Origin: Candidatus Krumholzibacteriota bacterium
GTDB taxonomy: Bacteria > Krumholzibacteriota > Krumholzibacteriia > JAJRXK01
Assembly (NCBI GenBank): GCA_963764625.1
Contig: CAVXTH010000006.1
Coordinates: 192,001 to 256,000, forward strand
DNA length: 64,000 nt
Reading direction: 5' to 3'
In this document: positions 19,705-52,961 of the stretch, in pieces
Layout of the letters: each line of letters starts with the position of its first letter
Position numbering within the stretch: position 1 is the first letter of the stretch
The notes under the pieces: model-generated
Seen by the model: the letters and a program-made list of their open reading frames with translations, nothing else
Database searches by the model: none
Told to the model about the DNA's origin: nothing
Position numbers and translations under genes: made by a program

Positions 19705-20160
19705 ATGCGTCGAAGCCTCTTTCTGTTGTCGTGCCTGTTCGTGCTGGGCATGCTCGGACCCGGGTCTGCCTGGGCCACGCTCTCGGAGATGTGGAGTCTT
19801 CCCACCTATGAGCCCGCTCGCTGTCTGACTTGTCACACCTCCTCCCAGACCGCGCTCGACAACGATCCCTCTTTGGCAACGCAGTTGAACCCCTTTGGAG
19901 TCGACTGGAATTCGCTGGGTCGCGTTTGGAACGAGAACATCGCCAAGCGGGACAGCGACGGTGACCAGTGCATCAACGGCGCAGAGCTAGGGGATTACAC
20001 GGGGACACAGTGGACGGGACCTTATGTGGAGGATCCCACCCGCAACCAACAGAACAGCAATCCCGGTGTCGTCGACTGCACCCGGGCTTCGATCGACGAT
20101 CGAAGCTGGGGTATTCTCAAGGCCGTGTTCGGAGAATCGAACAAGTTCAAATACAAATAA
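19705..20160 (+). CDS. exported small protein with CxxCH, temptin-like DSDGD motif and SWGxLK tail
   Basis: Signal peptide; CLTCH; LNPFGVDW...DSDGDQCINGAELGD; SWGILKAVF. Confidence 0.75.
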   Translation: MRRSLFLLSCLFVLGMLGPGSAWATLSEMWSLPTYEPARCLTCHTSSQTALDNDPSLATQLNPFGVDWNSLGRVWNENIAKRDSDGDQCINGAELGDYTGTQWTGPYVEDPTRNQQNSNPGVVDCTRASIDDRSWGILKAVFGESNKFKYK

Positions 20161-20241
20161 TTCATCCGGGCGAAGGCCCCTGTTGTCTCTGCCGACCAGC
20201 CCTGCGCTGGAGGCGTGTTTTTTTGCGAGGTGAAGCAGGCG

Positions 20242-21531
20242 ATGCAGATGGTACGCGTTGTTCTGGGAGGTCAGTGGGGTGACGAAGGCAAGGGGAAGGT
20301 CGTGGACTGCCTCACCGCCGGCGTCGATCTTGTGGCGCGCTTTCAGGGAGGGGCCAACGCCGGTCACACCGTGAAGGTGGGCGACCAGGCGTTCGTCCTG
20401 CACTTGCTTCCCACGGGAATCCTCCACGAAAGGGTGCGCTGCTTTCTCGGAGCCGCGATGGTGGTGGATACCTGGGCCCTGTTGGGAGAACTGGACGAGC
20501 TAAAAACCGCTGGTATCGATGTCGAGGGTCGGGTTCACATCGCCACCTCCGCGCACCTGGTGCTGCCCTTTCATCGACGCGTCGACGAGCTGCGCGAGAA
20601 GAGTTTGCAGCGCAAGAGCATCGGCACCACGGGCTGCGGCATCGGTCCCACCTACGAAGACAAGATGGCGCGCATGGGAATGCGAGCGGCCGATCTGCTG
20701 CGCTCGGACGAGAGTCTGAAGCGCCTGGTGATCGAGAAAGTGCTGCGCGCGAATCAGTACATCGCGGCCCGCTTCGAGGCGCCCGCTTTGGCCGCGGAGG
20801 CTCTGGCGGCCGAGATCGTGGAGCAGGCCCAGCGGCTTCGGCCGATGATCATGAGTCCCTACGAGTACATGGCTCCGGTGCGCAACGGCGCCTGGAGCGC
20901 TCTTCTCGAGGGGGCTCAGGGCACTCTCCTGGACATCGATCACGGAAGTTATCCCTTCGTGACTTCGAGCAGCTGCACGGTGGGAGGGGCCTTGATCGGC
21001 ACCGGACTCTCACCTTGGCGCATCGGCGCGGTGACGCTGGTGATGAAGGCCTATTGCACACGCGTGGGGAATGGTCCTTTCCCGACCGAACTGCATGGCG
21101 ACGAGGCGGAGGAATTGCGCCGGCTCGGTCACGAGTTCGGGGCGACGACCGGTCGTCCGCGTCGTCCGGGATGGTTCGATGCGGTGGCGGCCAAGTACGC
21201 GGTCGACATCAATGGCGCGACCGAACTGGCGCTGACGAAGCTCGACGTCCTGAGCGGGATGGACAAGATCAAGGTGTGCACGGGATATACGATCGATGAG
21301 GAAGTGGTCGACTTCTTTCCCGACGACGCGCTCAGGCTCGAGCGTTGCAAGCCCGTCTTCACGGAGTTCCCTGGTTGGGAGGGGGACCTGAGCCAGGCGA
21401 AGACCTTCGAGGAGCTGCCCGAGGCCACGCGCGGCTACATCGGCGAGCTCGAAAAGCTGACCGGCTGCCGGGTTCGCTACGTTTCCACCGGGCCTCAGCG
21501 CGTCCATTTCATCGACCGCGGCGACGCCTAA
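20242..21531 (+). CDS. purA: adenylosuccinate synthetase
   Basis: QWGDEGKGK, GGANAGHT, EGAQG, GATTGRPRR. Confidence 0.98.
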   Translation: MQMVRVVLGGQWGDEGKGKVVDCLTAGVDLVARFQGGANAGHTVKVGDQAFVLHLLPTGILHERVRCFLGAAMVVDTWALLGELDELKTAGIDVEGRVHIATSAHLVLPFHRRVDELREKSLQRKSIGTTGCGIGPTYEDKMARMGMRAADLLRSDESLKRLVIEKVLRANQYIAARFEAPALAAEALAAEIVEQAQRLRPMIMSPYEYMAPVRNGAWSALLEGAQGTLLDIDHGSYPFVTSSSCTVGGALIGTGLSPWRIGAVTLVMKAYCTRVGNGPFPTELHGDEAEELRRLGHEFGATTGRPRRPGWFDAVAAKYAVDINGATELALTKLDVLSGMDKIKVCTGYTIDEEVVDFFPDDALRLERCKPVFTEFPGWEGDLSQAKTFEELPEATRGYIGELEKLTGCRVRYVSTGPQRVHFIDRGDA

Positions 21532-21685
21532 GGGTTTGCAGAATCGCAGCAGCGAGTCCTCAAAGAACGGGACTTTCCACCCCCTGGACCTGATTCGCGA
21601 AACGACGGGAAGCGATCCTACTCCACCGGACCGTGGGCGGGATTGGCATGTATTCTGTTCTGTTAGCGCCTGAGGTCTGAAATCG

Positions 21686-22594
21686 ATGCTGTGGCTCTTC
21701 CTGATCATCCTTTTCATCGCCGTGTCGGCGCTCGGAGCCTATGCCTTTCAGGTCTGGCGTCGGCACCGGAGGCTCGATGCCCTCGGGCGGCGTCACCACA
21801 TGCACCGCCCCAAGGGAAGCGAGTTCGAAACGGTGTTGCGAACCCTCCCCGAACACTGGGCGGGCGTGGGTCTACGAGACATCCTGGTGGGCACCGATAG
21901 CAGCGGCCGCTTCTTTTGCGCTCGCAAGGGGTGGGGCCGGGACATGCGCGAAGTGTTCGTGGTGGAGCTGAGTCAGCATACTCCCGCCCGTGGTCTTCAG
22001 CTCGAAAGCCGACTCGGCGTCAAGGCTGGAACTCTACACCTAGGCTGGGACATGACTCCCGAGCAAGCCTTGGATGCGACGGCCCGTGAGGTCGTGCAAC
22101 GCGTGCTGCGCGAGTTCGCCGCCTTCAAGCTGCACCATCCTCAGCCGGCCATCTCGTTGGAAGTGGGGGAGAAGAGCGCGGTGCTCTACGCTTCCGCCGC
22201 CGGAGAGGATCAGAAAACCACATTCATCGCTGCCGCGCGCGTGCTGCGCGGTGACTTGCTGCACTGTCTCTTCCGCCGGGCCACGAACACGCTGAATGCC
22301 CCCTCGCCCTCGAAAGCCCACGAGCCGGTCGCACCGGTCGACGCTGGGCATGCCGACATCGACCGCGCGCTGGAGAATCTCGAGGCCGAGCCCATCGTGA
22401 GCGCGCAGGAGCTTCTCAAGGATAAGCCGCCCCCGCCGAAGAAGGGCTGGTTCCGGGTGAAGGGGAAGGAAATCTTCGAGATTCCCGAGCCCGAGGAACA
22501 GGTCGTGGTGCTTTCGGCCGGCGCCGCCCATACCAAGGCGGTCAAGCCCATCAAGGAAGCGGACGAGGACAAGTCCAAGTTCTCCTGGTTCTAG
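21686..22594 (+). CDS. hypothetical membrane-anchored protein
   Basis: N-terminal hydrophobic helix; fills the purA-tRNA gap. Confidence 0.6.
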   Translation: MLWLFLIILFIAVSALGAYAFQVWRRHRRLDALGRRHHMHRPKGSEFETVLRTLPEHWAGVGLRDILVGTDSSGRFFCARKGWGRDMREVFVVELSQHTPARGLQLESRLGVKAGTLHLGWDMTPEQALDATAREVVQRVLREFAAFKLHHPQPAISLEVGEKSAVLYASAAGEDQKTTFIAAARVLRGDLLHCLFRRATNTLNAPSPSKAHEPVAPVDAGHADIDRALENLEAEPIVSAQELLKDKPPPPKKGWFRVKGKEIFEIPEPEEQVVVLSAGAAHTKAVKPIKEADEDKSKFSWF

Positions 22595-22738
22595 AGCGCA
22601 TCGAGTGCTCCTCTCGCGCCCCGCGGGACTTCCCGTTGTTGCCTGCCCGGGTCATTCTGGCTACACTTCCGGTCCGCTGGCGCCCTCGAGGCACCGGCAT
22701 CCCTCCCGATTCTTCGCTGAGGCGAAGATGTCTTGGGT

Positions 22739-23282: not shown

Positions 23283-23437
23283 TAGCCCTGATGCTGTAAC
23301 GATTCCTAGGGCAGCAGCCCCCAGAGGAACTCTCCAGGCCCGAATCCCTCCCCGCATTGAAAACCGAGATCGGGTAGTCCTATAATGGCTCTGGCTCCCT
23401 ACAGATGCGTAAGCCGTCACGAGCAGGAAATCGCCTC

Positions 23438-24127
23438 ATGAGCAAACTCGCCATGTTCGCTACGTTCTTAGCAATCCTCGCCGTGGCATCCGAGGCGACC
23501 GCGCAAAGGATCGGCTTGAGTTTCGATGAGGCCAATACTAAGGTCGCCATCGACGGGCGCTCGGATCTCATTCTCGACCCTTACAATTACTACTTCCCCA
23601 CGGCAGTCGTTTATGTCATCGCGTATGACATTCCGGAGGTATTTGGATACGAGTACAATGTCACCTCGACGGATGCGACCGGGCTCTGGGGTAGGCCGGT
23701 GATCTGGCCTTCGGTCGGCGCGAACTTCGCCACCATCCAGGGTGACGTTCGTGTGGGCACAGGGATATGCTTTCAGGCTGGTAGCAGCGAGGCTGGACCG
23801 GATCCCACCCAGATTCGTCTGGCGAGGCATACGTTCGCGTGGGCGACTCTGCCCTGGTACGACGTGGTGTGCTGCATTCATCCTTCGCAGGCTTCGGTAA
23901 ACGACAGCGGTGCCACGGCTCCCCAGTACACCGAGTGCGTCGCGAACCCGGTTGCTCTGCCCTTCGGTGTTGCTCCAGAGTATGCGAATGCGTGCATTTC
24001 CGACGGGTGCATTCTCGTCGTCTTCGAGTGGGAAGCGGATGGCGTGACTCCCGTCAATTGCGTTCCGGAACCAATCGGCACCCCAGCGCCATCCACGAGT
24101 TGGGGCGCGCTCAAGGCAGCGTACTAG
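23438..24127 (+). CDS. exported Cys-rich hypothetical protein with SWGxLK tail
   Basis: Signal peptide MSKLAMF...ATA; ends PSTSWGALKAAY. Confidence 0.8.
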   Translation: MSKLAMFATFLAILAVASEATAQRIGLSFDEANTKVAIDGRSDLILDPYNYYFPTAVVYVIAYDIPEVFGYEYNVTSTDATGLWGRPVIWPSVGANFATIQGDVRVGTGICFQAGSSEAGPDPTQIRLARHTFAWATLPWYDVVCCIHPSQASVNDSGATAPQYTECVANPVALPFGVAPEYANACISDGCILVVFEWEADGVTPVNCVPEPIGTPAPSTSWGALKAAY

Positions 24128-24162
24128 CGTGACCTGGCAATTGGGTTGTTGAAGTCCGCAAT

Positions 24163-24324: not shown

Positions 24325-25245
24325 CTAAAACATTGCCTTCAAGTGTCCCCATGTCGTCGATTCCGAGGAAACCTTCAAGTTGATCCCTTTCAGAAAATAC
24401 CCCCGATCCTCCCAGACTTTGATCTTGTAGATGTCCGGTCCGTCCGGCTGCGAGACTTTGATCACGTAGAAGTCGTTGTCTCCGGTGACGAGGGTGTACT
24501 GCTCAACCCCTTGGAATCGCACGACCATTCCCACTTTGAAGCGCGCCAGGAGGGTGCCCGCGTAGAGTGGATCCGTCCCGGGATCACTCCACTCAGTGAT
24601 CTTGGCAAAAGTAGTGAACTGGATGCTCTGAACGGGAGGGATCGCAACCTGGTTGACCAGATCAAATCCGGCATCCCCACGGAACATCGCGCCGACGGAA
24701 TCCAGCTCATCCTGGCGCCCCCAACTGGGACCCACGAACTGTTCAAGCCCATCGTTGGGATCGAAGAAGAACAGAAATTGATCGTCCAGGAGTAGCTCGT
24801 AATCCGAAATCCACATTTTCTCCCAGGTGTTCTTGAAGTTACTCATAAGAGCGTCGGGAGATGTACTGGTCTCGGAAATGTTCTTTGTTGTGACAGCCAC
24901 CGAATTTCCTGTACCCACTGCATTGGCAGTCGTCATAACATCGATTCGAAAGTTATAAGTAGTCCCGGGCTGCAAATGTTGAACTAGGTACTCCGAAGTA
25001 TTCCTGTCAGTAATCGTAACGAGCACCGAGTCATTCGCCGACTCCATTACAACAGTGTAGAAAGAAAAGTCACCCAAAGTAGAGATCGTCCACGAGAGCA
25101 ACACGCTGCCCGATGAGATGTCAGACTCAGTCGGAGTAGAGAGGACTACAGGCGCTGGTCCAACCGGCGGTTCGGTCGTGTCGTTGCTGCTGGAGCAAGC
25201 GGTGAGAGATAGAGTGATCAAGATTAGAGCGTAGAGTTGCTTCAA
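24325..25245 (-). CDS. lipoprotein with fibronectin type III domain and TWGxLK tail
   Basis: Lipobox LTAC, LSWT...LQPGTTYNFRI (FN3), ends TTWGHLKAMF; TTG start overlaps upstream TGA. Confidence 0.8.
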   Translation of the reverse strand: MKQLYALILITLSLTACSSSNDTTEPPVGPAPVVLSTPTESDISSGSVLLSWTISTLGDFSFYTVVMESANDSVLVTITDRNTSEYLVQHLQPGTTYNFRIDVMTTANAVGTGNSVAVTTKNISETSTSPDALMSNFKNTWEKMWISDYELLLDDQFLFFFDPNDGLEQFVGPSWGRQDELDSVGAMFRGDAGFDLVNQVAIPPVQSIQFTTFAKITEWSDPGTDPLYAGTLLARFKVGMVVRFQGVEQYTLVTGDNDFYVIKVSQPDGPDIYKIKVWEDRGYFLKGINLKVSSESTTWGHLKAMF

Positions 25246-26084
25246 TTGTCTCCCCCCAATTCAGCTCTCAGCTCCCCAAAAGGAAGCCCCGAACTGCCAT
25301 TGTCTTTCCAGAGAATCATAGTAACCAGGCTTCCTAGACGGAATTTATAGTCAGCGATGCCCTTCCAACTTCGCCCAGTGGGAGTTCCTGCTGCATCCAC
25401 TTCGTTGATGATGTAGCGCACGGTAAGGTCAATCTGATCTCCGCTTAGAGTCGGCCCAGAGAGAATGCTGTCGGCCAGTGAGGCCTGGAAAAGGGAGCCC
25501 GTGAACGCGTTTTGAATGAAGTTGCTTTCCCTATCCTTCGTCCACACTGTGTCGAACACTGTCGGATATTGGGCCATCAAGCTCGCCGTGGGCCCGTACA
25601 CGAAATCGGTGCCGATGACTCTAAGGTATTCGTTCGCGTCTCCACAATGCAACGCCCCCTCCAGATTGTATATCACGTTCTGCCAGCTGTCGTTGAACCG
25701 GAAGTCGACATCACAGGCGGAATTCGTCGTAACCGTGATGGTGCTGCCCTTACCCGTCTGGTTGGCAGTCGACTTTACATCCACCCGGAATTGGTACTCG
25801 GTATCCGGTTGCAGATCCTGAACCTCATACTGCGTTGTATTTCTGTCGCTGATGGCAGCAAGAACTGAATCACTCGCCGACTCCATCACGACAGCATAGC
25901 GTGAAAAGTCTCCGGCTGTAGATACTGTCCAGGTGAGCACCACACTGTTGGCAGTTATGTCGGTATCAGTAGGGATTGAAAGAGCTACCGGCTCTGGACC
26001 CGTTGGTGGTGCAGTTGTGTCGCTGCTACTGCCACACGATGATAGCAGCAGAAGCAGGGCCATTAAAGGAAACGCATTTTGCAT
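25242..26084 (-). CDS. lipoprotein with FN3 domain, paralog of the neighbouring gene
   Basis: Lipobox LSSC; DTT.PP.GP.PV.LS.PT..DI and LQP.T.Y.FR.DV shared with 24325..25245; ends PFGELRAELGGDN. Confidence 0.8.
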   Translation of the reverse strand: MQNAFPLMALLLLLSSCGSSSDTTAPPTGPEPVALSIPTDTDITANSVVLTWTVSTAGDFSRYAVVMESASDSVLAAISDRNTTQYEVQDLQPDTEYQFRVDVKSTANQTGKGSTITVTTNSACDVDFRFNDSWQNVIYNLEGALHCGDANEYLRVIGTDFVYGPTASLMAQYPTVFDTVWTKDRESNFIQNAFTGSLFQASLADSILSGPTLSGDQIDLTVRYIINEVDAAGTPTGRSWKGIADYKFRLGSLVTMILWKDNGSSGLPFGELRAELGGDN

Positions 26085-26507: not shown

Positions 26508-27203
26508 CTAGAAGCGCGACTTGAGGGCACCCCAAGTGCTTTCCTGCGATCCAACCTCACAGCTGGGATAGATCACGACTGTAGCCTGAACGACGTCACC
26601 CCAAGCACCGGCTTGCGGACCCGCCGCACAGGTGTCATCGATGAAAGCCGGGTAAGCGGCCGGGATGGGGAAGAGCTGGGTGTTTCCAGTGATCGCCGCG
26701 TTGCTGATCGTGTAGGTCATGCAGTTGATATAGCCGTCGAAGGATCCGAAGACATCGATGTCACTGACCACCGATTGCAACACTCCGCCCACGTAGAGAT
26801 GGCTGGAGGTCACCGTCATCTGATCCACCTGGACGGTATAGTCCTCATCTCCCCAGGGACCGGCGGCTCCGAACCAAAACGCGCCGTTTTGATAGTGCGT
26901 TTCATATTTGACCGTACCGGTTCCGGCGACGCGGGTGTCTGAGGTCATCGTCGGCGCAGCCATGATCGAGGGGCAGATGAGAGTCCATTGCGTGCCCAGG
27001 CTGCCTCCGTCCCAGGACTGTGCGTTGATGGTGTTGCCCAGATTCCCTTCATAGAAGGTGGGCGCGAGCCAGGATTCGCTGAAATGACCCGGGAGGACTT
27101 GGCCTCCCAGATCAGTGGTCTGATAGGTGCCGACCACCGGCGGTCCGGCCAGGGCAAGCACAGGGATCAACAGAATGAAGACGGTCGGGATCAAACGTCT
27201 CAT
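26508..27203 (-). CDS. exported hypothetical protein with TWGxLK tail
   Basis: Signal peptide MRRLIPTVFILLIPVLALA; ends CEVGSQESTWGALKSRF. Confidence 0.85.
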   Translation of the reverse strand: MRRLIPTVFILLIPVLALAGPPVVGTYQTTDLGGQVLPGHFSESWLAPTFYEGNLGNTINAQSWDGGSLGTQWTLICPSIMAAPTMTSDTRVAGTGTVKYETHYQNGAFWFGAAGPWGDEDYTVQVDQMTVTSSHLYVGGVLQSVVSDIDVFGSFDGYINCMTYTISNAAITGNTQLFPIPAAYPAFIDDTCAAGPQAGAWGDVVQATVVIYPSCEVGSQESTWGALKSRF

Positions 27204-27533: not shown

Positions 27534-28141
27534 CTACCACGAAGCCTTGACGCTACCCCAGGTACGAGGGGCGGCGTCCACCGGTCCCGTGCACGAATGC
27601 CCTTGCCCCTGCGTGATTTCCGAAGAGCGCAAAATCGGAAAAGTTTTGTGTGTGGTCGCAGTTGTAGTCGCACAGTGGATTCGAGTAACTGAAGTCACTT
27701 GCGTCCAGGGCGAAGTCGCCATTGGTATCCAAGGCATGGATTTTGCGCTGGGCGAGCAGGACTCCGTCGGCGCGGATGTCCACGAGGCCTCCGCCGCAGT
27801 CACCACCCTCTGCCAGATGAAACAGGGCCTCTCCGGCGGAATTGGTGGCCAGGATCGCCCGATCGTCGGTGCCATCCGGGCAGCTCCCGGAGCCACCGGG
27901 CGAACAAAGCTGTGGGCCCGCAACAATTACAGAAATCAACCTCGACGACCGAATCCACGCACGCCGCACCCGCGGCATCCCGGACCACGACCAAGAAATC
28001 GGTGTCTCCGGCCGGACAGGTGACGAGACAGGCATCTACCGTCGATTGAGCTGGGTCTGGTGTCCCCGCCAGCGCAAGACAGGGCAGAAAAACCACGGCG
28101 AAAAGGGCAAGAGCGAACGTCGCTAGCTTATTGAGTTTCAT
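27534..28141 (-). CDS. exported Cys-rich protein with EF-hand/dockerin-like loops and TWGxVK tail; two frameshifts (~27915, ~27600)
   Basis: Signal peptide MKLNKLATFALALF (ORF 27800..28171); middle DTNGD...DYNCD (ORF 27553..28035); end CTGPVDAAPRTWGSVKASW (ORF 27534..27926). Confidence 0.7.
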
Positions 28142-28351
28142 TGTGACTCCTTTTGGAAGGCGAAGACCCATCGAGACAGCAAACCTCGATAAGCCAGCAT
28201 GAGGCGGGAGCCAGACCTCAGGCTACTTTGCGGCAGAGAGCCAATTTGTGTGAGGAAGCCAAAATTTATGCGTGGGGCAGTCTGCGGATGGGGGGACTAC
28301 CGCAGTAGACGAATTTAGCATACGGAAGGGCAGAGGTCAACGCAAGGGGGC

Positions 28352-30071: not shown

Positions 30072-30813
30072 ATGAGCGTGATGACAAGAGAATCCAATGG
30101 AGTCGCTCTCGCACTGAACGAGGTCGAGAAGACCTACATCATGGGGGCCGAGAAAGTCCACGCCCTGCGCGGCGTTTCGCTTCAGGTGCGCAAGAACGAG
30201 TACGTGGCCGTCATGGGTCCCTCCGGCTCGGGCAAATCGACATCTGATGAACGTGATCGGCTGCCTCGACGTGCCCACCAAGGGCACCTACACGCTGGAG
30301 GGGCAGACGGTCGCGGACATGACCCAGTCCGAATTGGCGGAGATTCGCAATCTGCGCATCGGCTTCGTGTTTCAGACCTTCAATCTGATTCCGCGGGCCG
30401 ACGTGTTTCACAACGTCGAGTTGCCTCTGATCTACGGAGGGGTGCGAAGCCGGGAACGCCGCGAGAGGGCTGAGCAGGCTATCGCGAGGGTGGGCCTGAG
30501 CGACCGTATGAAGCACAAGCCGAACGAGCTCTCCGGAGGGCAGCGCCAACGCGTCGCGATCGCACGCGCCATCGTCCTGAATCCGTCCATCATTCTCGCG
30601 GACGAACCCACAGGAAATCTCGACAGCAAGACCGGTGACGAGATTATGGCGATCTTCGACGAGCTGCACGGCGCTGGACACACCATCATCGTGGTGACCC
30701 ACGAAGATTACATCGCCGAGTACGCCTCGCGGTCGATTCGGCTGAGGGACGGTCTCGTCGAGAGCGACGAAGCCATAGGACGCAAGGCAATGGCCGGAGG
30801 AGCCATGTCGTGA
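30072..30813 (+). CDS. ABC transporter ATP-binding protein (MacB/LolD type); frameshift at ~30243
   Basis: GPSGSGKST then LMNVIGCLD in another frame; [19 protein letters not shown]. Confidence 0.9.
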
Positions 30814-36091: not shown

Positions 36092-39000
36092 ATGTCTCGC
36101 GCCCGATACTGTCAAACCATCCTTTCTCTTCTCGTTCTGGTTTTTTTCTCTGCCGGATCGGCTAGGGCCCAGAACGCGATCGTCACCGAGAACGCCCTGC
36201 CGGGCAATCCCCCCAGCGAGTGGGACGTGAGCGGCGCCGGGGACCAGAGTATTCAGGGCTTCGCCACCGACATCAGTGTCGACCAGGGCGGGACCATCGA
36301 GTTCAAGATCAGAACCGATGCCACGAGCTATCGCATCGACATCTACCGGCTCGGGTACTACGGAGGCGACGGGGCGCGCAAGGTCGCGACGGTGTTTCCT
36401 TCGGCCACTTTGCCTCAGAGCCAGCCCGCCTGTGTCTCCGATGCCGCCACTGGCTGTCTCGACTGCGGAAACTGGGATACCTCGGCGTCGTGGGCCGTTC
36501 CCACCGATGCGACCTCGGGGATTTACCTGGCAAAACTGGTGCGCTACCGATCCCGAGGATGGGCGAGCCAGCCACATCGTCTTCATCGTGCGCGACGACG
36601 ACGGCGGCAGCGATCTTCTCTTCCAGACCTCCGACACCACATGGCAGGCCTACAACCGTTAGGGGCGAGAGCGTACGACCGGAGGCTACAGCATCTACGA
36701 GGGTCCCACCGGCAAGGCCGACAAGATCAGCTACAACCGGCCCTTCGGCACCCGCGCCTATCCCACCGAAGACTGGCTCTTCAACGCCGAGTACCCGATG
36801 GTGCGCTGGCTCGAGCGCAACGGCTTCGACGTGAGCTACTCCACCGACGTGGACACTGATCGCCGTGGAGCCGAAATCCTGGAACACCAGGTATTCATGT
36901 CGGTTGGCCACGACGAATACTGGTCGCGCGCTGCGCGGGAAAACGTCACGGCCGCGCGGGATGCCGGAGTCAACCTGGCTTTCTTCAGCGGGAACGAGAT
37001 CTACTGGAAGATTCGCTGGGAAGACAGCATCGACGGCAACGGTACGCCGATGCGAACCCTGGTGTGCTACAAGGAAGGCGACCTCGGCGAGAACCAGTGC
37101 TTCGCCAAGTGCGATCCGGTGGCTGACGTGTGGACGGGATTGTGGCGCTCCGGTTGCGCCTACACGCCGCCGGCCGACGGCTGCGAGCCGGAGAACGCCC
37201 TCTCGGGACAGATCAGCTGGCTGGGCACCACGGGCTCCATCACTGTACCCAGCACCTACAGGGATCTACCCCTGTGGCGCAACACCTCCATCGCCACCCT
37301 GGGGCCCGAGGAGACCGCTACGCTTCCCAGTGGGACCCTGGGCTACGAGTGGGACTTCGAGCAGTACGAGGACTCCTATCCAGCGGGCCGGATTCGTATG
37401 TCCGAGACCCACCAGGATGGTGAGACCCATCACCTTTCCGTGTACCGTCACAGCAGCGGCGCTCTGGTCTTCGGGGCCGGCACCGTGCAGTGGTCATGGG
37501 GTCTCGACGCGAATCACGATCGTTCGGGGGGCGCAGAGGATGCGCGGATGCAGCAGGCCACGGTCAATGTGCTGGCCGACATGGGTGTGCAGCCGGCGAC
37601 CCTGCAGACGGGTTTGGTGGCGGCAACTCCTCTTTCGGATTCCACCGCGCCGCTCTCGGTGATCGCATTTCCCGCCGACGGCTCGTCGGTGGAAATCGGT
37701 ACCCCGGCTACCATCGCGGGAAGCGCTTCGGATACCGGAGGAGGAGCGGTCGCGCTGGTCGAGCTCTCCTTCGACGGGGGAGCGACCTGGCAGACGGCCC
37801 AGGGGCTTGCGAACTGGAGCTATCAGTGGACTCCCACCAGTTACCGGGCCGGTCGCCATCATGAGCCGGGCGATGGATGGAGCCTTCAACACCGAAACTC
37901 CCGGAGCGGGAATCAGCCTTACGGTCGATCCGCACGTCTGCCCCTGCACCCTCTGGAGTGACGCCGTCATTCCGGGAACCATCGATAGCGGCGATGCCGC
38001 AGCCGTCGAACTGGGGATGAAATTCCAGACCGAGGAGAATGGCTACATCACCGCCATTCGCTTCTACAAGGCCGCGACGAACACTGGCGTTCACGTGGGA
38101 AATCTGTGGGCCAGCGATGGCACCTTGCTGGGTAGCGCGACCTTCTCGGCCGAGTCCGCCTCCGGCTGGCAGGAGGAGCCCCTCAATCCGCCGGTGGCCG
38201 TCACCGCCAACTCCACCTACGTCGTCTCGTACCACACGAATACGGGTTACTACTCGGTCGATACCGAATACTTCGCCAGCACCGGTCTGAGCAATCCTCC
38301 TCTACGGGCCCTGGCCGAGGGAGAGGACGGGAGCAACGGAGTCTACAAGTACGGTGCCACCAGTGCCTTCCCGACCGACACCTTCAACTCGTCCAACTAC
38401 TGGGTGGACGTGCGCTTCAACACCAGCGCGGTCGACGATCAAGCGCCCTACGTGACGATTCACAGCCCCGCCACCGGCGCCTTGGGAGTTGCGGTGGAAA
38501 GCAACGTCACCGCGACCTTCAACGAATCGGTCGATCCGTTGAGCGTGGTTTTCGAGTTGCGCGACGCGGGCAACAGCCTGGTCGCTACGAACTTCAGCTA
38601 CGACGGTCCGTCCCGGACCGCGATCCTCGACCCCGTGGTCGACCTGGATCATTCCGCCCAGTACACCGCCACTCTGAGCGACGCGACCGACCTGGCCGCC
38701 AACTCGCTGACCGCACTGGTGAGCTGGTCGTTCACCACCGAGGACGTGCCGCCACCGCCTCCTGACGAGGGTCCGGGCGGGCCGATCCTGGTCATCGGCG
38801 AGGCCGGTAGTCCCTTCACGCGCTACCCGGCGGAGATTCTCCGCACGGAGGGCTTCAACGCCTTCACGGTGACCGACATCAGCCTGGTCGACGCGAGCGT
38901 CTTGACCAACTACGACGTGGTGATCCTGGGCGAGATGGCGCTTTCCGCTGGTCAGGTCACCATGTTCAGTGACTGGGTGACCGCGGGCGGCAATCTGATC

Positions 39001-42000: not shown

Positions 42001-44268
42001 AGCTTCACCACTCCGGCGCCCTCGTGCGCGATGGTGAGTACGAGCAGCGAGTTCGGGGCGGGAACTGCGGACGCGGGGGTGACGGTGGCCGAGATCGGTG
42101 ACGGGGCCCTGATTCTGACTCCGGCCGAGGGCTCGGACTTTTCCGGTACGGCTCTGCCTTCGGGATGGCAGAGCACGCCTTGGGTCGCCGGCGGCGGAGG
42201 GGTGGTGAGCGGAGGCGCTCTCTTGGTGGACGGATCTCTGGTGGGGACCGACGCGGTCTACTCCGCGGGGCGGGTCCTGGAGTTCAGGGCCACCTTCGGC
42301 CCCGAGGCCTTCCAGCACGTGGGCTTTGCGGTCGACTTTGATACCGTGAACAGCTGGGCCATGTTCTCGACTTCGAACCAGACCACCGATCTCTACGCGC
42401 GCACGTCCCCCGGTGGAGCGGACATCAATCTGGGGAGCGGGTTCGTGGGCAGTTCGCATCTCTATCGCATCGAATGGAACGCTAGCAGCGTCCTCTTTTC
42501 CATCGATGGAGCGCTGGTCAACACCCAGAACGTGAGTATCGCCACCGACATGCGACCGGTTGCTAGCGACGTGCACTACAACGACGGCAACCTGATCACG
42601 ATCGATTGGCTGCGCATGACTCCCTACGCCTCCTCAGGCACCTGGGAATCGGAGATTCACGATACCGGCCAGTTGAACTCCACCTGGCATACTCTGAGTT
42701 GGACACAGGACGTGCCGGCCGGATCCTCGCTCGTGGTGAGCGCCCGGGGTGGCGATACGCCCACTCCCGACGGGAGCTGGACCAGCTACACGCCGGTGGC
42801 ATCCTCGGGAACCGACCTCGCACTGAATGCGCAGTACCTGCAGCTACGGGTCCAACTCTTTAGCCTCGACGGTACGGTTACGCCGGTCTTCGAGGACTAC
42901 TCGGTCACCTGCACCGGATGTCTGGACAACACACCGCCCGATGCCCTGACCGACTTGGCGGCCTCGCAGGTGAAGACGGGCAATCCGGCGGGTCAGCTCA
43001 CCCAGATCACCGCGAGTTGGAGCGGAAGCGAACCCGGTTCGACGGTGGAGGTGTTCCGCAAGAGCTTCGGCGACTATCCCGACTACGACGACGGACCCAC
43101 GCCGGGCGTCGCGCCCACGCCACCGGCTGATCCGGCCGCGGCGGTCAGCGAGGGCTGGAGTTCGGTCTACCAAGGCTCCGACCTCGAGTTCACCGAGCTG
43201 CCTCCGGCGCGCGATTTCTGGTACTACGTCGCCTTCGTCACCGACGCCTGCGACAATGTCTCGGCCGTTTCGAACATGACGGCCGGAACCCTGAGTTACT
43301 TCCTGGGCGACGTTTCGGACGGAGTGACCACGGGGACCGGAAACAACGACGTGGCCCTGGAGGACATCTCGTATCTGGGGGCGCACTACGGTGCGAACCG
43401 CGGCGAGGCTCTCTACGAATCGGACCTCGACGTGGGACCGACGAACACGAGTACGATCGATGGCCGGCCGCTCACCGATGGCCATCTGGGCTTCGAGGAT
43501 CTCATCCTGTTCGCGATCAACTTCGGGGTGGTCTCCAAGCAGGACATTACTTGGACTCCACCCACGACGGCCGGTGGCAACACTCTGGTGTGGCAGGCGC
43601 CGACCACTCTGCCCGGGGTGGGGGAGACCGTCGATCTTCCTCTGGTCATGGACGGCAACGGTACGGTGCTGGGTCTCAGTGCACAGCTGCAATGGGATCA
43701 GTCGGTGCTGGCCTTCCAGGGGTTCTACGCCGGTGATCTACTCTCCAAGCAGGAAGGTCCGAACATCCTCTTGCAGCCCGAGGAGGGCAGACTGGATCTG
43801 TCGCTCCTGGGGGTACGGGAACGGGGAATCAGCGGCCAGGGGACACTGGCTCACGCGAGCTTCAAGGTGCTCAAACCGGCCGAGCCAGGGTTTGCGACCG
43901 GCGAGGTCATGGCACGCGATCTGAACAACGCGAAAGTGGACGTGACGGTGGAACTGTCTCACGAGCAAACACCCCAGATCAGCAAGCCACTCGTGACGGC
44001 TCTGCACCCGAACTATCCCAACCCCTTCAATCCGAGCACCTCGATCGCATTCGATCTGGCCAGGACCGGACCGGTCTCGCTGAAGATCTACAGCGTGAGC
44101 GGCCGCCTGGTGAGAACCTTGGTCAACGAAGTTCGTACAGCAGGGAGTTTCGTCGAGGTGTGGAACGGCACCGATGCCTCAGGGCGTGGAGTCGCCTCGG
44201 GGAGTTACCTGGTGCGGCTTCAGACCCAGGAGGGTTCACAGATCCAGCGGATGATCTTGAGTAAGTAA
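36092..44268 (+). CDS. giant (~2700 aa) secreted protein: N,N-dimethylformamidase-beta-like domain, Ig, DUF4082, Big_5, deacetylase-like region, duplicated FN3+lectin-like units, dockerin-like, cohesin-like, FlgD/T9SS-like CTD; frameshifts ~36545 and ~37843, in-frame TAG at 36660
   Basis: ENALPG, IYRLGYYGGDGAR, TWQAYN, EYPMVRWLERNG, GHDEYWS; VELGMKF...NYWVDV (DUF4082); NYPNPFNPSTSIAFDL...GRLVRTLV...WNGTD..G..VASGSYLVRL. Confidence 0.8.
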
Positions 44269-44276: not shown

Positions 44277-45530
44277 TTGTCTGACCCCTCGAATCGAGCT
44301 CTAAGAGAGCTTCGTATCGGTGAGTTTGTCGCCTTGATGGCGCTGATGACCTCGCTGGTGGCGCTCTCCATCGACGGCATGTTGCCCGCGCTGGCCGCGA
44401 TCGGGGCCAACTTGGGTGCGGTTTCCGCCAACCAGACCCAGTGGGTGGTCACCGCGCTTCTGATCGGCCTGGCGGCGGGACAACTGGTCTACGGTCCTTT
44501 GAGCGATAGTGTGGGGCGCAAGGGACCGGTCCAGGTGGGTCTCGTCATTTTTGGCGTCGGCTGCCTGCTCTGCATCGTGGCCTCGGACTTTCGTACCATG
44601 CTGGCGGGCCGCTTGCTGCAGGGTCTGGGAGTGGCTGGTCCACGCAGCGTCTCCATCGCCCTGATCCGTGATCTTCACTCCGGGCGCGAGATGGCGAAGA
44701 TCATGTCCCTCATCATGTCGGTGTTCATTCTGGTGCCCATCATGGCGCCGGCCGTGGGTCAGGGAATCCTGTTGGTGTTGAATTGGCGTGGGATCTTCGG
44801 GTTCTTCCTCCTCCTCTCGCTCGTGGTGTCGGCGTGGTTCGCGCTGCGGCAGCCCGAGACCCTGCCGCGTGAACGTCGCAAGCGCTTTGCCCTGGAAGAA
44901 GCTCGGTTCGACCGCGAGTGGCGTGGTGCGCAATCAGGCCGCAATCGGCTTCACTCTGACTTCGGGGATTTCGTCCGGCGCCTTCATCGGCTATCTCAGT
45001 TCGGCCCAGCAAATCTTCCAGGACGTTTTACCATGTTGGTTCGCGCTTCGCCTTGTACTTCGGAATTTTGGCGGCCTCGATCGGCCTGGCGGCGCTGCTC
45101 AACGGACGCCTGGTCATGCGTCTGGGAATGATCCGGCTTTCCACCTGGGCTCTCCGCGCGATCTCGGCCCTTTCAGTCATCTATCTCGACGCTCTGCTAC
45201 TTCTTCCCGAACCAGGCAGGTCTGGTCTGGTTCATGGTCTACATGATCTTGACCTTCTTCTGCGTGGGAGTGCTCTTTGGAAACATGAACGCTCTGGCGA
45301 TGGAGACTCTGGGCGAGGTGGCCGGGGTGGGAGCTGCCGTCGTGGCTTCGGTGTCGCTCACCGTCTCCATCGTGTTGGGGGCAGTGATCGGTCAGAGCTT
45401 CGATGGCACCGTGGTTCCCTTGGTGGGTGGATTCGCGTTGCTCAGTCTGTGTAGCCTACCCCTCATCGCCTGGGCGGAGCGCGGTCGCGAGGCGGGAGCT
45501 GAAGTCGAGTTACGGACGCCGGTAAGCTAG
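44277..45530 (+). CDS. Bcr/CflA-family MFS drug efflux transporter, several frameshifts 44900-45240
   Basis: ALSIDGMLPAL, GPLSDSVGRK, GRLLQG, LRQPETLP; C-terminal helices in ORFs 45053.. and 45234.. Confidence 0.85.
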
Positions 45531-45579: not shown

Positions 45580-46686
45580 TCAGCGAGTGCCGAAACGCGC
45601 CTTCAATTGACCGATTGATGTGGGTTCTACGGCGACCTGATTCTGCAGGATCACTCGCGCCCCATCGTAGAGAACCACGATGAGGTCGATCGGAGTTCCG
45701 TCACTGAGGGTTCCGGTGAGCTGGTTTTCGACTCCGCGCTCCTGGCTTCCCTGCAGCGTAAGCTGATGGCCGATCACCGTCAGTTGGGAGCTTCCCTGAA
45801 GTACGATCTGACCCATGTAATCGCCGCCGGAAAGAGAGATCTGGGAGAGCTTGAAGGCTGCGATGCACACGAGGGGAGAGGAGGACGACGAGCCCGCGAC
45901 GAAGTGGCCTCCCTCGATGAAGACCTGCGCTTGCTCGTCGATGCACAGCGCGCGACCGCCCGCCGCGGAGCCGGTGGAGGCTCCACCCTCGAAGCCGCCG
46001 TCGGAAATGGTGAGGGAGCCCCCGCTGAGATGAAGCGCGTCTCCACCGGTGGTCTGTCCCCTGCCACCCTGGAAGCTGCCCCCCGAGATGGTCCCGACGC
46101 CTTCGGCGTACTCCAGGGCGATGCCCCCGCTTCCGTCGAGCGCGTCGCCTCCCTGGATGGTGCCCCCGCTCAACTCCAGGGTCCCCCGCACGAACACTCC
46201 GAAGCAGCCGTGATCGGCCGTGCCGCCTCCCGCGATGAGACCGCCCGAGATGCGGCAGGAGTAGGCCGGGTCGCCGCCGATGAAATAGAGAGCGCTGGAG
46301 GTGTAGGTGCTGGTGGAATAGGCGGCGCGGATCTCCGCTCCCGGTTGCACCTCGACCTGGCAGAATGAGCTGGACAGGCCGCCGGCTCCCACGCTCCCGC
46401 CGGTTCCCTGGAGCAAACCGCCGCTGACGAGGATGGTCGATCCGCTGGCCCCGAGCACGGCCGTACCGTTGAGCAGCGGTTGCACCGAGGCGCCGGCTCC
46501 GATTTCGAGCGTGGTTCCGCTCTGTACGAATACCTGCTCCTGTTCGCTGCCCGAGAGTAGATGCGAGCCACCGTCGGCGTAGATCACGGCTCCTGCGTCC
46601 GGGCCGCCGAGAGCTTCGAGGAGCACAAAAAGAACGGTCGCAACCAGCAGCGGGAGGGAATCCGCCGCGCGCCTTCTGGGGAACAT
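45580..46686 (-). CDS. exported Gly-rich beta-helix-like protein with SIGxLK tail
   Basis: Repeated (I/L)SGGxxxGG units; LTGTLSDGTPID; ends VAVEPTSIGQLKARFGTR. Confidence 0.75.
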   Translation of the reverse strand: MFPRRRAADSLPLLVATVLFVLLEALGGPDAGAVIYADGGSHLLSGSEQEQVFVQSGTTLEIGAGASVQPLLNGTAVLGASGSTILVSGGLLQGTGGSVGAGGLSSSFCQVEVQPGAEIRAAYSTSTYTSSALYFIGGDPAYSCRISGGLIAGGGTADHGCFGVFVRGTLELSGGTIQGGDALDGSGGIALEYAEGVGTISGGSFQGGRGQTTGGDALHLSGGSLTISDGGFEGGASTGSAAGGRALCIDEQAQVFIEGGHFVAGSSSSSPLVCIAAFKLSQISLSGGDYMGQIVLQGSSQLTVIGHQLTLQGSQERGVENQLTGTLSDGTPIDLIVVLYDGARVILQNQVAVEPTSIGQLKARFGTR

Positions 46687-46917
46687 CGGGTGCCTCCCAG
46701 TCGAGGATAGCCAGCGCCACGGAGGGCAGTGTATACCCGGCCAAGAGGTAGGGGAAGTACCAAGCGCGGCACAATCCCCTGGAAATCGAACGACCGGGCG
46801 GGCTACACTGAGAGAGTAGGAGACGCCCCGGTTCTGGTTCCGGTCGGCTCCGGCGAATCGGCAGAGTTCTCCTGCCGGAGCCCACAACTCATCCTCCTGT
46901 CCGTACGAGGTGCGCCC

Positions 46918-47424
46918 ATGAGAGCCTTGCGATTTGTATCCCCGCTAGTTGTTCTGATCGCGCTTTGGAGTATGTCCGCGTCGGCGCAGGTCGTCGAATT
47001 CCCGCCGAGTTGGCAGGGAATATGGAATGAGAACGTGGTGATGAAAGACTGCGAAACGGGCACGGTGCTAGGGAGCTATGCACAACTCGATACGATTTGC
47101 CCCGGGAACAGCATCGGAGATACCGGCGACGTCTGTACGGGTACGATCACCGACACCGCCATCGATGTGACCTGCTCATGGTCGGAGGAGGTTTTTCCCG
47201 GTTGCACGGTCAGCTTCCAGTCCGTGACGACTGGTACCAAGAGTGGTAACTCGATTTCGGGGAGCACCGAGACCAGTACGAGTTATACGGCCGGATGTGG
47301 GTTGCCCGACACCTGTATTCGCGAGGAGATCACGGGCACCTTCGTCAGTGTCGCGGATGAAGCGGCATGCCCGAGTGTCGCGACCCCACCTGCCAGCTGG
47401 GGCGTGCTGAAATCGAGGTATTGA
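46918..47424 (+). CDS. exported Cys/Thr-rich protein with SWGxLK tail
   Basis: Signal peptide MRALRF...ASA; ends CPSVATPPASWGVLKSRY. Confidence 0.8.
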   Translation: MRALRFVSPLVVLIALWSMSASAQVVEFPPSWQGIWNENVVMKDCETGTVLGSYAQLDTICPGNSIGDTGDVCTGTITDTAIDVTCSWSEEVFPGCTVSFQSVTTGTKSGNSISGSTETSTSYTAGCGLPDTCIREEITGTFVSVADEAACPSVATPPASWGVLKSRY

Positions 47425-47604: not shown

Positions 47605-48318
47605 ATGAAGCGTATGCTATCGATTTCTCTTTTCACCGCCGTGGCTCTTCTGGCCGTGGCGAGCCTGGCCTTTGGCCAGTCCTACCAGGATATCCATGGC
47701 GTAGGCACTGACGGATGCGCGCCCTCACCCCTGGATGGCACATCCGTCTCCGTCACGGGAATCGTGTACGTGGTGCCCGGAGTCTACAACGCAGGATCAG
47801 TCTATTGGCAGGCGGCTGGCGGCGGAGCTGGCGGGTGCACTCTGTTCGATTCGAGCCTGGCTGGTGTCGTCAGCGAAGGCGATGAGATCAACGTCACTGG
47901 AGATGTCTCGTTCTTTGGTGCCGAAATCGAGCTCATCAATACGGTGGTGACCGTAGTGACCAACGGCAATGCAATCGTCTCGACTCCAATCGCAACCGGC
48001 GATTTGGCCGCCGGCACGGACCTGTTGGGTGATTTCCTGCAGGTCACTGGCACCTTGGCGCTGGTGAGCACGGGCTTTAATAGCACCTACACCGTCGATG
48101 ACGGAAGCGGTCCCGTGACCGTCTTCATCGATGGCACGACGCTGATCGACACCGCGACCACCTTGGATCCCTACTTGGGAGACATCGTCACGGTGAAGGG
48201 CTCGACCAAGTGCTTCAACGGTGAAGGTGAGCTTCTGCCTCGCCGCGACGCGGATATCACTCTGACCGCGGTTCCCGCTCCGACGAGCACCTGGGGTTCG
48301 CTGAAGGCGCAGTTCTAG
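47605..48318 (+). CDS. exported tandem OB-fold-like protein with TWGxLK tail
   Basis: SPLDGTSVSVTGIV, GDEINVTG, VDDGSG...GDIVTVKG...LLPRRDADI; ends PTSTWGSLKAQF. Confidence 0.8.
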   Translation: MKRMLSISLFTAVALLAVASLAFGQSYQDIHGVGTDGCAPSPLDGTSVSVTGIVYVVPGVYNAGSVYWQAAGGGAGGCTLFDSSLAGVVSEGDEINVTGDVSFFGAEIELINTVVTVVTNGNAIVSTPIATGDLAAGTDLLGDFLQVTGTLALVSTGFNSTYTVDDGSGPVTVFIDGTTLIDTATTLDPYLGDIVTVKGSTKCFNGEGELLPRRDADITLTAVPAPTSTWGSLKAQF

Positions 48319-48378: not shown

Positions 48379-48412
48379 GTTTCTGCTGCGGTGGGGTTCG
48401 GCTGTCCCAGAT

Positions 48413-50776: not shown

Positions 50777-50824
50777 TTAGCCGCATTGCCTGAATGAGAC
50801 CGCGAAGCGGGCCGGAGGAATCGA

Positions 50825-52200: not shown

Positions 52201-52221
52201 GGGCGTTCAACCCGGGTAGAA

Positions 52222-52245
52222 GTATACCCGGGTAGACAATTCTGC
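52222..52245. repeat. 24-bp direct repeat copy 1 (palindromic core TACCCGGGTA)
   Basis: GTATACCCGGGTAGACAATTCTGC. Confidence 0.85.
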
Positions 52246-52298
52246 GGTCGACAATTGTGCTCTCCTCGCGATCGACAGGCGCGGGAATCGTATCGTAA

Positions 52299-52961
52299 TC
52301 AGTACCAGGACTTCAGCGTGCCCATGGTGCAGGTGGGGGCGGGATCGGGGTAGATGATCCCCGCCTCATCATCACCACCCGCGATCATCTACTGGTGGAA
52401 GCCCGAATTATGTACGGAACATGCAGTGTAGCCAAGAGCTCCGGATATGGGGTCAGTAGCCGTGAGCCGGACGAGAAAAAAGAAACTTAATGCAACTTCC
52501 TCGACCACATCGAAGCTGCCGAGTACGATCAAACCATCAGAGGATATGCAGTCCGGCGGTGTCACGTCGAAGGTGATTTGCTCAGCTTCGAAGGGATCAT
52601 CCCGGTTCAGAGTAAACGCGTAGTTCGTTCCCTCGGGAAAGTGCGGAGTGATGAGACTATGGTCTGGAATACGCAAGCCCAAGGAGTAGTCAGCCACATC
52701 TCCGGGGAGATTGTTGGCCACAACGTAGGCCGTGAAGCCATCGCGGCCGTACTCATCCCTCCAATAGTATTCCTGACCACATTCCTCACCGGGATTGCAG
52801 AACGTTATGTAGCGCGCCGTACCCTCGGGATTCAGGTAAATCCCGATCTCACCCGAGGCGGGCTGTGCTAGGGCGGAGACCCCAGTCGCAAGTGAGAGGA
52901 CGAGGACGATGGGGAGGATAAGAACGAAGTCGAGGCGCACTCGCGTGGAGGGAATGACCAT
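52299..52961 (-). CDS. exported hypothetical protein, paralog-like to 23438..24127; in-frame TAG at 52389-52391 before the tail TMGTLKSWY
   Basis: Signal peptide; GEIGIYLNPEG...AYVVANNLPGDVADY; frame continues past TAG as MIAGGDDEAGIIYPDPAPTCTMGTLKSWY*. Confidence 0.65.

Follow-up and report, generated by a model that had tools for sequence, protein, structure and literature searches.

A short conserved C-terminal tail on unrelated exported proteins of a Krumholzibacteriota bacterium, a candidate cell-envelope sorting or anchoring tag

Introduction

C-terminal sorting tags set which proteins reach the bacterial surface and, to our knowledge, each newly recognised tag has led to new envelope machinery. 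In the PEP-CTERM/exosortase, LPXTG/sortase and GlyGly-CTERM/rhombosortase systems, a signature motif is followed by a transmembrane helix and a basic cluster. Proteins with a type A C-terminal domain (CTD) of a type IX secretion system (T9SS) are secreted via SprA/Sov and PorV, and the CTD is cleaved by PorU. In the pairs PulD-PulS and MxiD-MxiM, the short disordered C-terminal S-domain of a secretin is thought to fold on a pilotin, which carries the secretin to the outer membrane. PDZ domains and Prc also read C-terminal peptides, and the published beta-signal consensus of outer-membrane proteins has a Gly five residues before the aromatic residue. Here we describe a tail of approximately 17 residues, with a WGxLK core, at the C-terminus of exported proteins encoded in a 64,000 nt stretch of the chromosome of a Candidatus Krumholzibacteriota bacterium (assembly GCA_963764625.1, contig CAVXTH010000006.1). 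This stretch, C6:192001-256000, is referred to below as the window; C-numbers denote contigs of the same assembly.

According to one report (PMC11969387), the shortest natural T9SS signals in print are three-strand CTDs of 43–55 aa from Prevotella intermedia. The same report cites the last 22 residues of HBP35 as sufficient for secretion of GFP, which is a precedent for a very short signal. At approximately 17 residues, the tail is far shorter than the CTDs described there, as a first-pass annotation of the window had pointed out, and a natural T9SS signal of 17 residues would be new. Literature searches by the spelling of the motif, by C-terminal sorting or T9SS in Eisenbacteria and by T9SS in Poribacteria, returned no description of the tail.

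Results

A strictly C-terminal tail

The host genome is 3.57 Mb in 9 contigs, with 62% G+C, and was represented by a crude set of 2754 genes and by 23,391 open reading frames (ORFs) of at least 50 aa. When the strict pattern [ST]WG.[LVIM]K[AGST].[YFW] was run on the six-frame translation of the whole genome, 33 matches were returned, where 0.025 are expected from the composition of the crude proteome. Of the 33, 21 abut a stop codon, 11 are 1–3 residues from it and one is 9 residues from it. A hidden Markov model (HMM) of the tail, with 19 columns built from 37 seeds, gave 53 matches in the ORFs at 10 bits or more, and 51 of these lie no more than five residues from the C-terminus. The other two are both outside the crude gene set: one (17.2 bits) is 40 residues from the end of an ORF beside a frameshifted carrier, and one (10.0 bits) is in a 55 aa ORF. 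No internal match of at least 10 bits was found among the 2754 crude genes and no housekeeping protein of the window carries a tail, in agreement with the initial observation that no cytoplasmic protein there has it. As a C-terminal tag on exported proteins, the tail is genuine, phylum-wide and far from random.

The tail consensus is hVPAxxx[ST][WF]Gx[LVIM]K[AS]x[YFW] with 0–5 trailing residues, and spans approximately 17 residues. In the alignment of 48 tails on which the column statistics rest (carrier counts rest on 51 ORFs), the core columns are S/T (43), W/F (42), G (47), a variable position, L/V/M/I (46), K (48), A/S (45), a second variable position and F/Y/W (48). Upstream of the core are V/I (42/48), P (26/48) and A/T (38/48), followed by three variable residues. 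The internal G and K are the most conserved residues, and the final residues are less so. After the 9-mer, 20, 9, 8, 10, 2 and 2 of the 51 carriers have 0, 1, 2, 3, 4 and 5 further residues, respectively. The proteins therefore end 0–5 residues past the motif and no NCBIfam sorting-domain model matches, which bears out the observation that the tail is followed by neither a transmembrane helix nor a basic cluster. The tail had also been said often to follow a Cys; this applies to 25/51 carriers, which have a Cys within the 16 residues before the 9-mer, and suggests that the tail usually begins right after the last disulphide-closed domain.

A strictly C-terminal position and an aromatic end would suit a degron or processing signal read by a periplasmic tail-specific or PDZ protease (Prc/CtpA or DegP/Q/S type) that controls turnover or maturation. 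However, the aromatic is the very last residue in only 20/51 carriers, and in 31/51 it is followed by 1–5 variable residues, so that its carboxylate is not free. Conservation also peaks at the internal G and K rather than at the last residues, and a single degron shared by some fifty unrelated proteins in three phyla would be unusual. We therefore regard a degron as improbable.

Carriers are mostly unrelated exported proteins

The 51 carriers are equivalent to approximately 1.9% of the crude gene set (2754 genes). BLAST comparison of the bodies, after the tail had been cut off, gave 40 clusters, of which four have several members (8, 3, 2 and 2) and 36 are singletons. No fewer than 10 Pfam families occur among the carriers: Temptin_C, fn3, Cohesin, OB-fold, LTD, Beta_helix/NosD, Phosphoesterase, Peptidase_C25, GDSL lipase and DUF4114. 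Temptin_C, fn3, Cohesin and OB-fold are those seen in the window. Among the 38 other carriers of at least 120 aa, 29 have no Pfam family and nine have one, namely LTD, Beta_helix/NosD (three carriers), Phosphoesterase, Peptidase_C25, GDSL lipase, Cohesin and a weak DUF4114. The carriers are thus not all homologous over their full length, and the claim of mostly unrelated bodies was upheld. Inheritance of the tail as a piece of one family or fold, or its origin by chance or as an assembly artefact, might be suspected from the largest cluster, which comprises eight paralogues with several in tandem on contig C2, and from the many frameshifts in the assembly. It is refuted by the diversity of clusters and Pfam families, by the 33 strict matches against the 0.025 predicted, and by the presence of the same tail in 21/21 relatives and in other phyla (see below), and we give it virtually no weight.

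The carriers are small, with a median length of 243 aa and 39/51 between 150 and 320 aa. The first-pass annotation had suggested a genome-wide HMM count and a comparison with signal peptide predictions; the count gave the 51 terminal matches described above, and a hydrophobic N-terminus was found in 34/45 carriers of at least 150 aa, compared with 651/2354 other genes. Among the 11 carriers that failed this test, three have a signal peptide further in, the start of the ORF having been called too early, and three have clear signal peptides that score just below the threshold. After inspection, approximately 40 of the 45 have a signal peptide. The statement that all full-length carriers have a signal or lipoprotein peptide therefore holds for most of them, but five lack a recognisable signal peptide and a lipobox is present in only 2/51.

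One carrier, at C7:35883-37214, is a 443 aa Peptidase_C25 protein with a gingipain/PorU-type catalytic domain (E 8.6e-45) and the tail variant SLGGLKARF followed by RRR. It has two large paralogues, of 1587 and 1679 aa, at C6:852420-862305. The C-terminal region of the T9SS_sortase model matches near the end of the 1679 aa paralogue and approximately two-thirds of the way along the 1587 aa paralogue, and neither is among the matches to the CTD model PF18962 in this genome.

Carriers in the window

The carriers of the window and the related features discussed below are as follows (bit scores are those of the tail HMM unless another model is named).

19705-20160, plus strand: small dihaem/Temptin_C protein with a signal peptide; atypical SWGILKAVF at 20104-20130, then 9 residues; 6.3 bits
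23405-24127, plus strand: cohesin-like beta-sandwich carrier, one of eight paralogues; SWGALKAAY at 24098-24124; 25.3 bits; Foldseek matches to cohesins, E 2e-5
24325-25245, minus strand: fn3 lipoprotein carrier with a lipobox; TWGHLKAMF at 24328-24354; fn3 E 5.6e-10; 21.3 bits
25242-26084, minus strand: fn3 lipoprotein below the tail threshold, ending PFGELRAELGGDN; fn3 E 8e-12; less than 8 bits
26508-27311, minus strand: carrier without a Pfam family; TWGALKSRF at 26511-26537; 24.4 bits
27534-28171, minus strand: frameshifted carrier; N-terminal piece with the signal peptide at 27800-28171, C-terminal piece at 27534-27926
27534-27926, minus strand: C-terminal piece of the preceding carrier, a 130 aa ORF without a signal peptide; TWGSVKASW at 27537-27563; 20.1 bits
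35494-36051, plus strand: cohesin-domain carrier; SWGTLKATY at 36022-36048; Cohesin E 7e-5, just under the cut-off; 24.6 bits
37807-44268, plus strand (context, not a carrier): 2153 aa DUF4082/Big_5 surface protein; FlgD_ig-type T9SS CTD at 44014-44256 (C6:236014-236256), 29.6 bits for the CTD
45580-46887, minus strand: 435 aa carrier without a Pfam family; SIGQLKARF at 45592-45618, then GTR; 19.0 bits
46729-47424, plus strand: carrier with its true start probably near 46918; SWGVLKSRY at 47395-47421; 23.6 bits
47590-48318, plus strand: OB-fold carrier; TWGSLKAQF at 48289-48315; tRNA_anti-codon E 5.7e-7; 26.2 bits
52299-53669, minus strand: 426 aa ORF (52389-53669) and a detached tail piece with TMGTLKSWY at 52302-52328; in-frame TAG at 52389-52391 between them

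Ten of the 12 tails that had been listed for the window are present in its sequence at the places given. The two described as degenerate, PFGELRAEL (25242, minus strand) and SPGLLKGSF (26109, minus strand), score less than 8 bits and were not supported. SWGILKAVF is also present, but it is an atypical form with nine trailing residues and a score of only 6.3 bits. The repair that had been proposed for the TWGSVKASW carrier is plausible, as the signal peptide and the tail are in separate overlapping ORFs, and the TAG that had been reported before TMGTLKSWY is in frame. A start near 46918 for the SWGVLKSRY carrier agrees with a signal peptide that begins at residue 68 of the ORF. In the 435 aa carrier, a signal-peptide-like stretch is found at residue 77 of the ORF.

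The window is ordinary chromosome, in which exported proteins without known function are interspersed among housekeeping genes, including those for thiolases, aconitase, isocitrate dehydrogenase, trigger factor, ClpP, ClpX, Lon and PurA. It also encodes a MacB-type ABC exporter, an M1 peptidase, GatB, DinB and LexA. Genes split across overlapping frames or cut by a stop are found at 13100-14468, 27534-28171, 30072-30810, 36092-37958, 44277-45128 and 52299-53669, and include those for trigger factor, an ABC ATPase, a DMFA2_C-like protein and an MFS transporter as well as two tail carriers. In this nine-contig assembly, these look more like long-read indel errors than pseudogenes.

The adjacent fn3 lipoproteins at 24325-25245 and 25242-26084 have N-termini that are alike by eye, and their bodies did not cluster by BLAST; they are apparently paralogues. 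The PFGELRAELGGDN ending of the second is also found on a second copy at C5:267114-267713, and could be a decayed or diverged variant of the tail, or no tail at all. The protein at 19705-20160 has a CxxCH motif, a Temptin_C match (E 2e-11) and a partial match to the GEGP dihaem model (33.9 bits, far below its 300 bit cut-off), and would be an unusual type of cargo for a surface tag. The 2153 aa protein, which also includes a GH16-like stretch and immunoglobulin (Ig) domains resembling PhoD_N and the N-terminal domain of purple acid phosphatase, is the sole CTD cargo of the window and is flanked by tail carriers.

The tail is independent of the fold that precedes it

In 24 homologues of the cohesin-like protein encoded at 23405-24127 (the 23405 protein), body identity is 41–67% and the linker that leads from the last Cys to the tail differs in length as well as in sequence, yet all 24 have the W, G, L and K of the tail. 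Conservation of a tail while linker and body diverge is the pattern of a functional short linear motif. The OB-fold carrier has 41 homologues, all of 217–265 aa, and 38 of them keep G-x-x-K-x-x-[YF] near the end, with free change at the W/F and L/V/I/M positions and in the trailing residues. None of the 41 has a CTD annotation.

An AlphaFold2 model of the 23405 protein, made with the alignment of its family, is a beta-sandwich with a mean predicted local distance difference test score (pLDDT) of 85.5, and approximately 90 in the body. The body resembles cohesin modules (Foldseek E 2e-5; TM-score 0.41–0.64 by target length). In the linker and tail the pLDDT drops to 59 and 53, respectively, and the tail is not packed against the body. 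The unpacked tail and the divergence of linker and body support the original notion that the tail is a strictly C-terminal module and not part of the fold. The accompanying proposal of an amphipathic helix is not established: AlphaFold2 does draw residues 222–228 as a helix, but at a pLDDT of 53, and in 41/48 tails strand periodicity gives a larger hydrophobic moment than helix periodicity does. The variable tail positions 4 and 8 are compatible with either a helix or a strand.

An aromatic at or near the C-terminus, preceded by alternating L, A and aromatic residues, is reminiscent of the beta-signal by which the last strand of an outer-membrane protein is recognised by BamA/BamD of the beta-barrel assembly machinery (BAM). 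If the tail were such a signal, the carriers would be outer-membrane proteins. However, the one carrier that was modelled is a soluble cohesin-like sandwich with an unpacked tail and no barrel, and others include a c-type cytochrome-like protein, a C25 peptidase, a GDSL lipase and a phosphoesterase. The Gly of the tail is six residues before the aromatic, rather than five, and residues extend past the aromatic in 31/51 carriers, leaving it last in only 20. As the carriers consist of soluble domains, the beta-signal explanation fails, and we consider it very improbable.

The tail is found throughout the phylum and in at least two others

The tail HMM matched at E<=0.01 in 21/21 relatives, with 7–70 copies in each, and at E<=1e-5 in 95/121 sampled genomes of the phylum. 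The latter threshold is strict; one family stood at 10/25 genomes with it. When one genome from each prokaryote species was scanned with a DNA pattern that encodes W-G-x-L-K-A-x-Y-stop, at least 125 stretches were returned. Among the matches listed, 104 end in a true stop; the open frame is 100 aa or longer in 67 of these and shorter in the other 37. The short-frame loci are scattered over unrelated taxa, as expected by chance. The 44 titled long-frame loci among the matches listed are from Candidatus Poribacteria (31), Krumholzibacteriota (4), Eisenbacteria (2), a metagenome-assembled genome (MAG) labelled Fibrobacter sp. (1), other bacteria (5) and a streptomycete (1). The streptomycete locus is probably a chance match in a high-G+C genome. 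As the SprA coordinates in the MAG labelled Fibrobacter sp. are identical to those in a member of the sample from the window's phylum, this MAG is not an independent lineage.

A pattern count gave 20 in the window's genome, 9–16 in genomes of Poribacteria and four in the MAG labelled Fibrobacter sp. In Poribacteria the tail has the form AV[EQ]PxxKLPT[IV]WGxLKAxY. When the tail HMM was used on four Poribacteria genomes, no matches were found at E<=1e-4 (0/4), as the AVEPxxKLPT[IV]WGxLKAxY variant is too far from the model. The core [ST][WF]Gx[LIVM]K is found within five residues of the C-terminus on long ORFs of Poribacteria and Eisenbacteria as well as of Krumholzibacteriota. The first-pass annotation had mentioned similar tails in uncultured members of the Fibrobacteres–Chlorobi–Bacteroidetes (FCB) lineage, which fits Krumholzibacteriota and Eisenbacteria, but the tail is also abundant in Poribacteria.

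Relation to the T9SS

The genome encodes SprA, a canonical PorV with a split PorU-like C25 sortase immediately upstream, and 11 PorV/PorQ-family genes (E<=1e-14). It has 40 matches to Por_Secre_tail (PF18962) at E<=1e-3, 19 of them above the curated cut-off. In no case among the 51 carriers is the tail accompanied by a CTD. The tail is an alternative to the T9SS CTD, and the two are mutually exclusive on proteins. They also differ in the size of the proteins that bear them, with a median of 660 aa for CTD proteins (n=35) against 243 aa for carriers (Mann-Whitney P=1e-10). Six of the 51 carriers directly adjoin a CTD gene, compared with a permutation mean of 1.27 (P approximately 0.001), and 10 are within three genes of one, compared with a mean of 3.5 (P approximately 0.003).

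Tail and CTD take the same place in one pair of paralogues. The carrier at C7:170409-171143 is 61% identical, over 222 aa, to residues 224–440 of a 548 aa CTD protein, and its tail stands where the 548 aa paralogue runs on into the CTD. In an operon at C9:83001-91000, genes for a PorV-like barrel, a glucoamylase with a CTD and a tail protein are separated by gaps of 2 and 15 nt. A second tight operon, at C9:303001-312000, consists of genes for a tail protein, a Big_1 protein with a CTD and a PorV-like barrel. A 418 aa protein encoded at C9:309693-310946 matches the PorV/PorQ family over its first approximately 300 residues and has a FlgD_ig (CTD-like) domain at residues 326–388; from its sequence, this looks like the fusion of an outer-membrane barrel with a T9SS-tag-like domain.

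Each of the 16 genomes in which a tail locus was verified has a SprA_N match at E<=1e-3. They are the window's genome, four Poribacteria, two Eisenbacteria, three Krumholzibacteriota, the MAG labelled Fibrobacter sp. and five others. One further SprA_N-positive genome was left out because its pattern match ends in TGG and not in a stop. The same model found nothing in 14 control genomes (0/14). Among the genomes tested, the tail is confined to those with T9SS parts. The four Poribacteria genomes have 5–16 CTD matches and 10–12 PorV-family genes, and Poribacteria carry SprA-like giants and CTD cargo; a literature search on Poribacteria and type IX secretion returned nothing relevant by title and the opening of the abstract.

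No match to Pfam SprA_N was found in 23 of the 121 genomes of the phylum. When eight of these 23 were searched with the SprA of the window's genome, all eight had an orthologue of approximately 2100 aa (E<=1e-133), as did the three positive controls (3/3, each with a clear SprA orthologue). Because SprA_N misses real orthologues, surveys based on Pfam would under-call the T9SS in this phylum. A natural loss of the T9SS was sought inside the phylum, and no T9SS-free relative was found among the 8 of 23 candidates that were retested.

PorV/PorQ-family genes number 11 in the window's genome, 10–12 in the four Poribacteria, eight in the same-phylum MAG labelled Fibrobacter sp. and 0–4 in five Bacteroidota. 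Prediction of a complex between the canonical PorV (residues 25–330), one of the 11 paralogues, and the last 33 residues of the 23405 protein gave no answer (score 0.00 in two runs without controls), which speaks neither for nor against binding.

The abundance of such barrels bears on a further explanation, in which the tail serves for docking rather than as a signal for transport. As a mini-dockerin-like or strand-donating peptide, it would keep many small binding modules and enzymes non-covalently on a common scaffold, either an outer-membrane barrel (e.g. a PorV/PorQ paralogue) or a protein of the surface or periplasm, and transport would take another route. The conserved S1, G3, L5, A7 and Y9 alternate with the variable positions 4 and 8, and the excess of strand periodicity in 41/48 tails is as in beta-augmentation. 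Several carriers are themselves cohesin-like binding modules, the genome has 11 PorV/PorQ barrels, and a barrel of this kind is paired with a tail protein in each of the two operons above. However, W2 and K6 are conserved too, so that both faces of a strand would be constrained, and no partner protein emerged from this work. Docking overlaps the anchoring half of the explanation that we favour (see Discussion), and sequence alone cannot separate the two; as an account without any role in transport, we consider it rather unlikely.

Discussion

On balance, the tails are probably a short linear motif that acts as an undescribed cell-envelope address, either a sorting or an anchor tag. Of the original proposal of a sorting or anchoring tag on exported proteins, the C-terminal tag stands; its function and the nature of its reader we infer, with circumstantial support for sorting. 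Involvement of the T9SS is the leading mechanism, put forward tentatively. The carrier would be exported by Sec, with a signal peptide of the signal peptidase I type in nearly all cases, and its domain would fold in the periplasm. The C-terminal peptide would then hang on a variable, flexible linker of approximately 10 residues after the last domain, often just past a disulphide Cys. A conserved envelope component would bind this peptide and deliver the carrier to, or hold it at, the outer membrane or cell surface. The reader would most likely be part of the T9SS or a partner to it, and the tail would be a light alternative to the T9SS CTD of approximately 80 residues, such that small proteins take the tail and large ones the CTD. 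It is possible, if doubtful, that the tail is a minimal T9SS secretion or attachment signal of approximately 17 residues in phyla other than Bacteroidota (Krumholzibacteriota, Eisenbacteria and Poribacteria), read by a dedicated carrier, e.g. one of the 8–12 PorV/PorQ barrels.

Several observations weigh against an envelope tag read by the T9SS. Five of the 45 full-size carriers have no recognisable signal peptide, though at least one of the five is a frameshift fragment. The adjacency of carriers to CTD genes is modest (6/51) and may reflect mere clustering of secretome genes. In two of the four Poribacteria genomes, the SprA_N match is below the Pfam cut-off (19–20 bits). Five T9SS-bearing Bacteroidota genomes, reached via chance matches to the DNA pattern, have no tail-HMM matches at E<=0.01, and their pattern counts (1–3, compared with 0–1 for reversed-pattern controls) are at control level. 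As these genomes have a T9SS but not the tail, the T9SS alone does not explain the tail. With approximately three named phyla involved, the association of tail and T9SS could be due to shared ancestry. The local CTDs, of the FlgD_ig type and with the ending ...rk.vL.K, do not resemble the tail in sequence. The expansion of PorV paralogues was set aside as evidence for a reader, as it is confounded by private pairs of CTD cargo and PorV-like barrel in this genome. A PorV/PorQ tree of 39 sequences (10 from this genome, 12 from Poribacteria, eight from the MAG labelled Fibrobacter sp. and nine from Bacteroidota), in which 6/36 inner branches are well supported and many branches are long, shows no orthogroup common to all tail-bearing lineages and absent from Bacteroidota, and so points to no candidate reader.

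If the tail is a minimal T9SS signal, approximately 2% of the proteome would be surface-bound without a canonical 80-residue domain, and the tail would constitute a third, far smaller class of T9SS signal. More than half of the secretome of these phyla would then escape CTD-based cargo prediction, the cargo repertoire known outside Bacteroidota would be a gross underestimate, and the smallest T9SS signal would be several-fold shorter than at present. If another machine reads the tail, new sorting or anchoring machinery is to be found. Under both readings, a simple HMM would flag such proteins as envelope or surface proteins in metagenomes. Annotation pipelines do not detect the tail, which is present in three or more uncultured phyla, among them the Poribacteria, which are sponge symbionts.

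No Pfam or NCBIfam model matches the tail in the 10 window carriers or in 38 others and, by this comparison of sequences, it corresponds to no sorting signal catalogued in Pfam or NCBIfam. The closest described system is the T9SS type A CTD (PF18962/TIGR04183; here FlgD_ig-like, PF13860). Like the tail, this CTD is found at the extreme C-terminus of unrelated Sec-exported proteins, is joined to the body by an unstructured linker and is present in tens of copies per genome. The two occur in the same genomes and, in one paralogue pair, in the same place. However, the CTD is 43–100 residues long, against approximately 17 for the tail, which has neither an Ig-like sandwich nor B, D or E motifs. 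The CTD folds as a sandwich of approximately 70–100 aa (at least 43 aa, with three strands), whereas the tail is modelled as a loose seven-residue helix at the low pLDDT given above. No CTD HMM matches the tail, and there is no overlap between the 51 carriers and the 40 PF18962 matches. CTDs are on large proteins and tails on small ones, and the tail is absent from the five Bacteroidota genomes tested.

PEP-CTERM, LPXTG and GlyGly-CTERM resemble the tail in being short, lineage-restricted C-terminal signatures on many unrelated exported proteins. However, no hydrophobic helix or basic cluster follows the motif of the tail. The beta-signal of outer-membrane proteins differs in its cargo, as the modelled carrier is soluble and carriers have enzyme and binding-domain families. 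Secretin S-domains and their pilotins involve one cargo family and one pilotin, whereas the tail is on approximately 50 unrelated cargos, has no sequence likeness to the S-domain and has no pilotin-like partner among the proteins identified here. Nonetheless, the S-domain and pilotin provide a mechanistic precedent for a tag that works without a membrane anchor.

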